Of a DNA stretch of 64,000 nt, positions 14,410-17,670 are shown one piece after another. Made by a program: the position numbers and the translations under genes. The stretch comes from Octopus vulgaris (Eukaryota), in the NCBI GenBank assembly GCA_951406725.2, contig OX597825.1, positions 41,974,001 through 42,038,000 of the forward strand, given 5' to 3'. Under the pieces are notes generated by a model that was not told the origin of the DNA, did no database searches, and saw nothing but the letters and a program-made list of their open reading frames with translations. How positions within the stretch are numbered: position 1 is the stretch's first letter; each line of letters begins with the position of its first letter.

Positions 14410-14978
14410 ATAATTAATGTAGGATAAAATTTTTTTCGGGAAAAAATTTTATCAATGGCCAGCATATCAAAAAATACCTTTAAGGGCTAAATTTATAAAT
14501 AATTTACAAGATAAGGGCAGAAAAAAAATTCTAATGCCAAATATGCCGAAACTTAAAATTGTCGATAACCATTATAATTTATGCGTCTCGAAACAAACTG
14601 ATAGAAATCTCTAAAAATTCATTATTACTGTATTGGTCCAATTTCGGAGTTAATTCATAAGAAAATTTTCCCCTCTTCAGCGGCAAATATGCGAGATATA
14701 AGTGAAATACTTATTCATACCCATGGAAAAAGCAAGCACTAAGTCCCAAGCAGACCTAAGCACCCCAAATATATCCAAAATAGAAAAATCTTTGGCACAT
14801 CTCGAGACACACGTGATTCGAACTAGAAACTTTCACAGAGTGATAGAATTCGGAAGTGAACACTATTCAATTTATAATTAATGTAGGATAAAATTTTTTT
14901 CGGGAAAAAAATTTTATCAATGGCCAGCATATCAAAAAATACCTTTAAAGGTTAAATTTATAAATAATTTACAAGATA
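14409..14978 (-). mobile_element. Retrozyme-like non-coding element: 464-bp unit with ~105-bp terminal redundancy and one HHR
   Basis: 14409-14513 is repeated at 14873-14978. HHR at 14625-14686. Flanked by (CTAT)n/(TA)n tracts; no ORF. Confidence 0.75.
14625..14686 (-). ncRNA. Type I hammerhead ribozyme
   Basis: ttgccg-CTGAAGA-gggg...ctcc-GAAA-ttgg-a-ccaa-TA-cagtaa. Canonical core, near-palindromic stem III, AUA cleavage triplet. Confidence 0.8.
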
Positions 14979-16183: not shown

Positions 16184-16530
16184 GGTGCAGGCATGGCTGT
16201 GTGGTAAGAAGTTTGTTACCCAATCACATGGTTCTCGGTACAGTTTCACTACACAGCACTTTGGGAAAAAATCCTCCACTACAGCCTCAAGCTGCTCAAA
16301 GCTTTGTGAGTGTTTTTGTGTCTGTGTTTGTCCCCTACAAGCACTTGACAACCAGTGTTAGTGTGTTTACATTCCTGTAAATTAGTGGTTCAGCAAATGA
16401 GACTAACAGAATAAATACCAGGGTTAAAGAAAAAAAATAAGTACTGGGGTCGATTCATTCAATTAAGAATTGTTCAAGGTGGTCTCCCTGCATGGCCACA
16501 GTCTAATGAATGACACAAGTAAAAGATAAG
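16184..16530 (+). mobile_element. tRNA-SINE family A; a further 3' half copy lies at 16597-16778
   Basis: Head GGTGCAGGCATGGCTGTGTGGTAAG (A-box) and family 3' end. Confidence 0.8.
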
Positions 16531-16590: not shown

Positions 16591-16778
16591 ATATGCTTGT
16601 GAGTCAGTGTTTGTCCCGCCAACATTGCTTGACAACCAATGCTGGTGTGTTTACGTCCCCGTAGCTTAGCGGTTTGGCAAAAGAGACCGATAGAATAAGT
16701 CCTGGGATTGATTTGCTTGACTAAAGGTGGTACTACAACTTGGCCACAGTAAAATAACTGAAACAAGTAAAAAGAGTA

Positions 16779-17196
16779 GGCTGTTATACTTTACGTTGTT
16801 GAGTGGTTACTGTTTACATCTCGCTCTGAGATTTAATAATGCTTACAGTCAGTTTTTCGAAATCAGTGGCAGACGTCACTAGAAAAACTCATATATTTGC
16901 AAAGCAAGCCTTGCCTTCCATCGTGACCTTGTGGTTACCGCCCGTTGATAAGAGACAATAATCTCGAAACCGCGGTCCGGTGCGTATCACTAAGGCTTAC
17001 GAGGAAGGGATGACTTCCCTTTGCAAATACCTAAAGGGCACCGAAAGTGTGTCTAAACCAGCTGGAGATGTCGATCTCCTGGGGCTAAAAGCTACAGTAA
17101 CACCCCCACTTTGTGGTTAGCCATATTGAGATGGCTGTTATACTTTACGCTGTTGAGCAGTTACTGTTTACATCTCGCTCTGAGATTTAATAATGC
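16779..17196 (+). mobile_element. Retrozyme-like element: 354-bp unit with 64-bp terminal redundancy and one HHR
   Basis: 16779-16842 is repeated at 17133-17196. Central HHR, extensive self-complementarity, CpGs retained, followed by (TA)n. Confidence 0.85.
16938..16985 (+). ncRNA. Minimal type I hammerhead ribozyme, U3-A8 core variant
   Basis: ccg-TTGATAA-gaga caataa tctc-GAAA-CCGCGG-TC-cgg. Palindromic stem III (ACCGCGGT) and GUC cleavage site. Confidence 0.8.
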
Positions 17197-17670
17197 ATAT
17201 ATATATATGTATACACACACACACACATATATATATATATAGATAGATAAGTTGTTGCATATCATGCGTCAGTTTCTATTTTTTTTTTATCATGACTCAT
17301 GAAACATTATGCCAAACATATAATATCACCACAGAAATTTTCCTGATGCTGTTACAAAACTACCACATGCAAAATGGTACGTAGGAGAGAACTTGTAGTT
17401 AGTTATTGCTCCATAGAGCATACATTCTACAATGAAGCCACCTTGCATATATACACACACATTTACACCTACACATACATATATATTTATGACAGGCTTC
17501 TACACACTTTCTATCTACAAAATTAATTCACCCATGAGGAATTGGTCAACCTAGGGCTATTGAGGAAGACACTTGCTCAAGGTGTCACACTGTGGAACTG
17601 AATCAAAAATTATGTGGTTGCACTGTGAACTTGTTAATCACATAGGCATGTGTGTGTGTGCATGTGTGTG

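Follow-up and report, generated by a model that had tools for sequence, protein, structure and literature searches.

A dispersed hammerhead retrozyme family of Octopus vulgaris with the insertion pattern of Penelope-like elements

The non-LTR retrozymes of metazoans, as characterized in the accessible parts of Cervera and de la Peña (2020; PMC7229834), are non-coding units of 150-450 nt that carry a type I hammerhead, have a GC content below 50%, give a highly paired predicted circle and come with duplications of more than 4 bp. Ligation to circles was shown for the coral, mussel and axolotl retrozymes, the axolotl hammerhead has a short palindromic helix III, and coral arrays reach 62-mers (PMC7229834). 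Penelope-like elements cut and extend both strands at AT-rich DNA, with two adjacent internal start sites that bound a tail (Frangieh et al., 2024; PMC11167929), and leave an inverted truncated copy and a 30-40-bp tail that is usually on one end (Craig et al., 2021; 10.1101/2021.04.23.441226). U3-A8 minimal hammerheads with core covariation have been reported for the Cercyon Penelope-like elements of Schistosoma mansoni, in a study that also linked palindromic helix III to dimeric cleavage (PMC4209133). Finally, Li, Clavereau and Pollet (2026; 10.64898/2026.07.22.740005) argued for a Penelope-type mobilizer of retrozymes from co-occurrence and pLTR phylogeny, mostly in vertebrates. Retrozymes, the U3-A8 pair and the Penelope hypothesis are already published.

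Here we describe a family in the octopus that resembles the animal retrozymes in its type I motif, its non-coding 354-nt unit with a GC content below 50% and a highly paired predicted circle, its short palindromic helix III, which parallels that of the axolotl, its rare loci with two hammerheads and the target duplications found across the family. In contrast to the arrays described in the available text of PMC7229834, the octopus copies are dispersed, truncated and inverted, and they mix U3-A8, U3·G8 and C3-G8 cores; both the hammerhead and the circle are predictions here. Whereas the mobilizer of animal retrozymes has so far been argued from co-occurrence and phylogeny, the octopus family, without pLTR homology, carries the Penelope insertion signature itself. 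In the literature covered, which included few subscription journals, we came across no description of a retrozyme from a cephalopod, of a retrozyme with the Penelope insertion signature or of a LINE that targets a retrozyme, although Repbase or supplements may list the family.

The copy in the window

The window is a stretch of 64,000 nt of O. vulgaris DNA (contig OX597825.1, positions 41,974,001 to 42,038,000 of the forward strand), in which a young, highly structured and terminally redundant retrozyme-like unit had been proposed (Table 1). The 64-bp direct repeats with a period of 354 are indeed present, 61 of the 64 bases being identical between 16779-16842 and 17133-17196. Two of the three differences, TG and CA, fall where 84 of 105 motif matches read CG, and have the appearance of CpG decay. 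The proposed youth of the copy stands only at a moderate level: the nearest copies are 97% identical, and the repeats bear signs of this decay. CpG retention was borne out, with an observed/expected ratio of 0.84 in the unit stretch versus 0.27 for the window. The 354-nt unit has a GC content of 0.45 and no ORF of at least 120 aa.

The terminal redundancy itself does not hold up as a designed feature. Since 42 of the 140 arms mapped for the family exceed one unit by varying amounts, the redundancy of the window copy is accidental, the chance length of one 5´-truncated arm of 1.18 units, and the redundant 64 bases do not include the ribozyme. A plant-type LTR retrozyme, with fixed LTRs that each carry a type III hammerhead and with a 4-bp duplication, was rejected given a repeat without ribozyme, variable ends and a type I motif. 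A target duplication was looked for in both flanks of the window copy and none was found. The repeat in the left flank presumably resembles cephalopod SINEs.

All eight helix pairs named in the original prediction, including 16894-16904/17019-17029, lie where it placed them, and the predicted fold contains the rod by which stem I was said to continue as a long interrupted helix. The 418-nt stretch is highly structured (-130.1 kcal/mol, z -3.37), with an energy that none of 100 shuffles reached. When the 354-nt unit was folded as a circle, the + strand gave z -5.45 with 9 G·U pairs and the minus strand z -2.52, compared with z -3.01 and -1.11 for the two flanks (60 shuffles each). An Rfam scan of the stretch returned nothing at the gathering score; the Hammerhead_HH9 model matched 16927-17000 on the + strand with 32.2 bits (cut-off 52; E 4.3e-6). 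The core reads UUGAUAA (U3-A8), not CUGAUGA. Judged from its sequence, the motif is a putative type I hammerhead with a variant core that falls below the Rfam cut-off, and ribozyme activity is predicted.

The window copy is an ordinary solo member of a dispersed family. With one hammerhead and 1.18 units, it lies outside what the available text of Li et al. (2026), where solo copies are counted as family members, defines as an active retrozyme locus. A single hammerhead with a palindromic helix III makes it a poor source of a 354-nt circle, and the copy likely cannot release such a circle and is probably a dead end.

Table 1. Features of the retrozyme copy and its flanks, in window coordinates
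Feature	Position	Strand	Basis or remark
Single-arm insertion, 1.18 units of the 354-nt repeat	16779-17196	+	5´-truncated; 3´ end at family site B
Upstream 64-nt direct repeat (unit 1-64)	16779-16842	+	5´ edge is the truncation point of this copy
Predicted hairpin (helices 3-4 of the alignment)	16851-16889	+	Kept across subfamilies, without two-sided changes
Predicted interrupted rod prolonging hammerhead stem I	16894-17029	+	Fold and alignment helix 5
Insertion site of an L1/Tx1-type LINE in other copies	16920-16933	+	Empty in this copy
Type I hammerhead motif	16931-16990	+	Rfam model match, fold, covariation
Hammerhead stem I	16931-16944/16978-16990	+	
Hammerhead core UUGAUAA (U3-A8)	16945-16951	+	
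Hammerhead stem II, four pairs	16952-16955/16962-16965	+	
Hammerhead GAAA	16966-16969	+	
Helix III palindrome	16970-16975	+	
Predicted cleavage after GUC	16977	+	
Second repeat copy, from its start to site A	17133-17148	+	Site A: putative reverse-transcription start 1
Tail of ~48 nt with hairpin, site A to site B	17149-17196	+	Site B: putative start 2
Left flank, SINE-like host repeat outside the element	16594-16778	+	Edges approximate; other copies at 16344-16524
Right flank, (TA)n/(CA)n microsatellite	17197-17250		

Copy number and hammerhead variation

Further copies, which the original prediction had asked for, are abundant in the 2.8-Gb genome. The exact stem II region has 98 matches (96 with TTGATAA, 2 with TTGATGA and none with C at position 3), and a second motif 3´ of the ribozyme has 1,119 (control, 0); the drop from 1,119 to 98 across the cleavage site is due to subfamily variation in the hammerhead. 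A search with the unit gave 65 matches among 40 scored candidates, the best 97% identical. The largest contig contains 92 motif matches, including 15 inverted and 4 tandem pairs. Scaled by length, these correspond to ~1,140 matches in the genome, a value so near 1,119 that large hidden arrays are unlikely, and scaling from this contig gives a dispersed family of roughly 900 loci. No tandem arrays were seen, and no array of three full units was present among the loci. Loci with two hammerhead-bearing units are rare (L032, L033, L053 and L313), and two further tandem pairs have only one complete motif each. Contigs of four public runs, which are not on record as RNA, contained family fragments without an informative joint or end. 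At the level of the family, the copies, covariation, unit size and GC content uphold the retrozyme assignment; the designed redundancy and the role of the window copy as a circle source were not upheld.

A 3´ motif with 4,054 matches was discarded as a family count, as 57 of the 65 matches examined lie in another element. This high-copy element (L116, L117 and L119-L175; ~3,500 copies, extrapolated from the 4,054 matches) carries a tiny two-arm retrozyme insertion together with its target duplication, and has what we take to be a Helitron-like 3´ end.

The 3-8 core pair and stem II covary across copies. Among 141 motif matches, a sample that is enriched for the window subfamily and counts copies rather than events, the 3-8 pair was U-A in 108, C-G in 20, U·G in 8 and other in 5; 136 of the motifs keep the pair in one of the three states. 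Helix III is palindromic in 119 of the 141, in six sequence forms. Covariation of the 3-8 pair and the palindromic helix III together suggest cleavage as a dimer, and the sequence variation suggests that the hammerhead is under selection. We also aligned 42 copies (41 of the 72 near-complete copies plus L203), excluding the inner stem I pairs, which were misaligned. In this alignment 91.6% of cells pair, 45 cells are changed on both sides (reached by 0 of 500 shuffles) and 12 pairs are changed on both sides (21 of 500 shuffles), all figures being inflated by the relatedness of the copies. The rod, helix 5 of the alignment, comprises 37 pairs with 94% of cells paired and 6 pairs changed on both sides, and stem II covaries among the aligned copies. 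RNAalifold recovered only part of the rod and missed stem II, and its covariation term was small (-0.97).

An 80-row tree, for which the commonest type was thinned at random, places the C-G copies in one group (support 99/98); nested within U-A are seven U·G copies that have short branches and a GUU site. The tree is unrooted and gives no direction of change. Other copies have C at position 4 of the core. Weaker cleavage is expected of the U·G/GUU and C4 cores, yet copies of both types have spread in the genome. For rare core variants, slower cleavage has been reported (PMC7151607). The octopus subfamilies represent a natural series of such variants. Compared with the Cercyon hammerheads, as described in the available text of PMC4209133, the octopus pair is located in a full-size retrozyme hammerhead, and all three pair states occur in related subfamilies.

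Other HH9 matches in the genome were discounted as kin, having no sequence in common with the unit, and a pattern search with the canonical core returned one match, which is unrelated. L270:1-270 and L104 probably represent a sister retrozyme family, which has a U3-A8 core and weak similarity (E 0.007) to unit positions 270-315. Seven other loci (L103, L105, L107, L109, L111, L112 and L115) represent hammerhead-like repeat families with canonical cores that are unrelated to the unit in sequence. The window also contains a loose hammerhead-like motif on the minus strand (14640-14700), found in L263 as well, within another repeat (465-bp direct repeat at 14426/14891).

Insertion ends and Penelope-like elements

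Insertion ends were mapped for 96 elements of the window subfamily, after removal of one duplicate (L027) and three segmental copies (L015, L034 and L035). The 3´ ends of the 140 arms fall at unit positions 13-19 (site A) in 62 cases, at 58-70 (site B) in 54 and elsewhere in 24. The two sites, ~48 nt apart, thus account for 116 of the 140 ends, whereas the 5´ ends are scattered. Head-to-head inverted pairs with outward 3´ ends make up 44 of the 96 elements: 28 are A+B, one is A+A, none is B+B and 15 have an end elsewhere. A+B was thus found in 28 of 29 scorable pairs (p 4.9e-8). The inverted arms overlap by up to ~300 unit positions. Non-simple target duplications of at least 8 nt flank 34 of the 96 elements versus 387 of 9,120 mismatched flank pairs (4.2%), and 34 of the 140 arm ends sit in (TA)n. 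A second sample, not selected for the hammerhead, comprised 23 of 30 loci chosen by a 3´ motif, with overlaps and two LINE-bearing loci dropped; the end windows were slightly wider. Here, all but one of 35 arms (34) have their end at A or B, and the A+B combination is present in 11 of the 12 elements with two arms.

A linear cleaved monomer was also considered as a template. The 5´ ends of the arms form no cluster at the cleavage site: unit positions 175-207 contain none in the hammerhead-selected set, a count biased by that selection, and positions 202-204 contain 3 of 35 in the second sample. No arms of mixed subfamily were seen. Partner arms are 4.8% apart on average versus 8.5% to others, and rank in the top tenth in 47 of 71 comparisons, which fits one RNA or two alike. 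In the longest arm (888 nt), the arm's own units are 1.1% apart versus 4.5% between the element's two arms, a low divergence suggesting that this arm may stem from a later DNA duplication. Two loci, L178 and L180, have a common inner junction (unit 269/185) with the A and B ends swapped.

This insertion pattern is the published Penelope-like signature, and the family works like a non-autonomous Penelope-like element, with two 3´ ends that bound a tail present on one end. The likeness to the elements described in the accessible parts of Craig et al. (2021) and PMC11167929 extends to inverted 5´-truncated copies (44 of 96 elements), partial tandems (42 of 140 arms), AT-rich targets and the presence of a hammerhead. 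In contrast to those elements, the octopus unit has no ORF, its tail is ~48 nt rather than 30-40, its hammerhead is full-size with a long stem I rather than minimal, and it has no homology to the Penelope-type loci compared. We consider it very probable that the family is real and inserts in a Penelope-type manner, both together. The strict one-A-one-B rule means that each of the two cut DNA ends uses its own priming site, which was unseen in the assay of the anole element, where the start site showed no strand difference in the available text (PMC11167929).

The octopus genome encodes Penelope-type elements with long intact open frames. With the two start sites on a 354-nt RNA, these frames make the question of the mobilizer testable in vitro. 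A young autonomous family (L315-L331) has frames of 771-781 aa and the zinc motif described for Neptune and Nematis by Craig et al. (2021). Its minimal hammerhead reads UUGAUAA (U3-A8). The family has two 3´ ends and a ~40-nt tail with a hairpin, and its A end follows TTTAC, as does that of the retrozyme. B plus inverted A was observed in both of the two inverted cases among 17 loci. All 17 ends seen are in (TA)n, a stricter preference than that of the retrozyme (34 of 140). We regard this family as a candidate partner on the basis of likeness at the level of motifs. When four retrozyme copies were compared by BLAST with 62 Penelope-type loci from a few families, no homology was detected, nor any to the terminal repeat of an autonomous element.

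Two apparent signs of a partner were set aside. A Penelope-type reverse transcriptase fragment is joined to the retrozyme 5´ end with 7-nt microhomology (L034:4249-4860 and L035:6779-8800), but represents one event, duplicated, with the 3´ side lost; the joint lies inside a ~6-kb segmental repeat. At L030, the retrozyme was inserted, with duplication, into an old element from which the adjacent GIY-YIG fragment derives. Two more Penelope-type families with long frames (L232-L251) have minimal hammerheads that read CCGACGA and TTGAAGA, indicating that non-canonical cores are common in the O. vulgaris genome.

Proposed cycle and a LINE within the unit

We think it reasonably likely that the family was inserted by a Penelope-like reverse transcriptase-endonuclease copying a predicted RNA circle and, as a separate point, slightly more likely still that a circle from ribozyme cleavage is the template. 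In such a cycle, a rare two-unit locus would be transcribed and, as the covariation and palindromes suggest, two hammerheads would associate via helix III to excise an RNA of unit length, which by analogy with other retrozymes would be ligated to a circle. A protein presumed to be of Penelope type would cut AT-rich DNA with the observed 10-15-nt stagger, and reverse transcription would be primed at site A by one DNA end and at site B by the other, proceeding around the template for a variable distance. Single arms and head-to-head pairs of A and B are the products observed, and most of them are shorter than two units. A circular template would explain how two-unit loci are regained without arrays despite truncation at most insertions.

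The same end pattern would arise if a Penelope enzyme copied linear, uncleaved multi-unit transcripts, with a slow or dispensable hammerhead, no circle, and length regained when the enzyme jumps between templates or DNA is duplicated. In the accessible text of PMC11167929, insertion of the anole element in vitro did not require hammerhead cleavage and uncleaved RNA was the main substrate, and 8 of 9 Xenopus dimers failed to cleave in vitro (10.64898/2026.07.22.740005). In the octopus, amplification of the U·G/GUU subfamily, the lack of a 5´-end pile-up at the cleavage site and the one dimer that looks like a DNA duplication (the 888-nt arm) also fit linear templates. Nevertheless, we judge copying of linear RNA unlikely, if well short of negligible, as the compensated 3-8 pair and the six helix III palindromes are hard to explain without selection for dimer cleavage and no long arrays were seen that could supply long templates.

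It is very improbable that the family is a SINE-like element mobilized by LINE machinery, or else a viroid-like RNA that became endogenised and replicates from RNA to RNA. Target duplications of 10-15 bp fit LINEs too, the family has a physical link to a LINE and the unit is highly paired; however, the copies lack a poly(A) or repeat tail, and LINE priming on one linear RNA does not fit two internal 3´ ends and overlapping inverted arms. Moreover, the LINE lies within the unit and has a separate duplication, and the minus strand folds much less well. Least probable of all is that the window locus is itself an active source whose terminal redundancy yields a 354-nt circle. Its intact core, its strong circular fold and its position near the least diverged copies are offset by a single hammerhead, which would make one cut and no unit-length RNA, by a redundancy that lacks the ribozyme and has a copy-specific length, and by the signs of CpG decay. 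We retain Penelope-type copying of a circle as the preferred reading.

Several retrozyme copies begin at unit 142, behind a common poly(A)-signal-like end. This LINE-end motif has 45 matches in the genome, of which we examined 30 (L282-L311). In 27, the LINE end directly abuts a retrozyme, of the U-A, C-G or U·G subfamily; in three, the target motif is followed by other sequence, which in one case is the LINE's own 5´ end. A 5.3-kb LINE copy (L118:1384-6460) has a knuckle ORF, an endonuclease, a reverse transcriptase and a zinc domain, and is flanked by a 14-nt duplication. Thus, an L1/Tx1-type LINE targets one fixed site just 5´ of the hammerhead. The element has the Tx1 traits of an ORF2 with endonuclease, reverse transcriptase and zinc domain and of a single target sequence, which make it a putative Tx1 member on domain layout and target; 17 homologs of its protein have 29-36% identity, and none of them is named Tx1. 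Ribozymes release R2 RNA in rDNA, a model for the release of LINE RNA. We tentatively suggest, while considering it doubtful, a three-layer system in which a self-cleaving circular RNA would mimic Penelope start sites and hijack the enzyme, its core would evolve among C-G, U-A and U·G, and it would be parasitized by a LINE whose RNA would be released by retrozyme transcription and ribozyme cuts.

Tx1 elements with a specific target have been described that insert into transposons, into satellites or into small RNA genes (PMC4494074). The octopus LINE shares its domain layout and a one-site multicopy target with those described in the available text (Tx1L in Tx1D, Keno in U2 and Tx1-Mar), but its target is a hammerhead retrozyme. 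A second, related type of LINE end is present in L032, L076 and L084.
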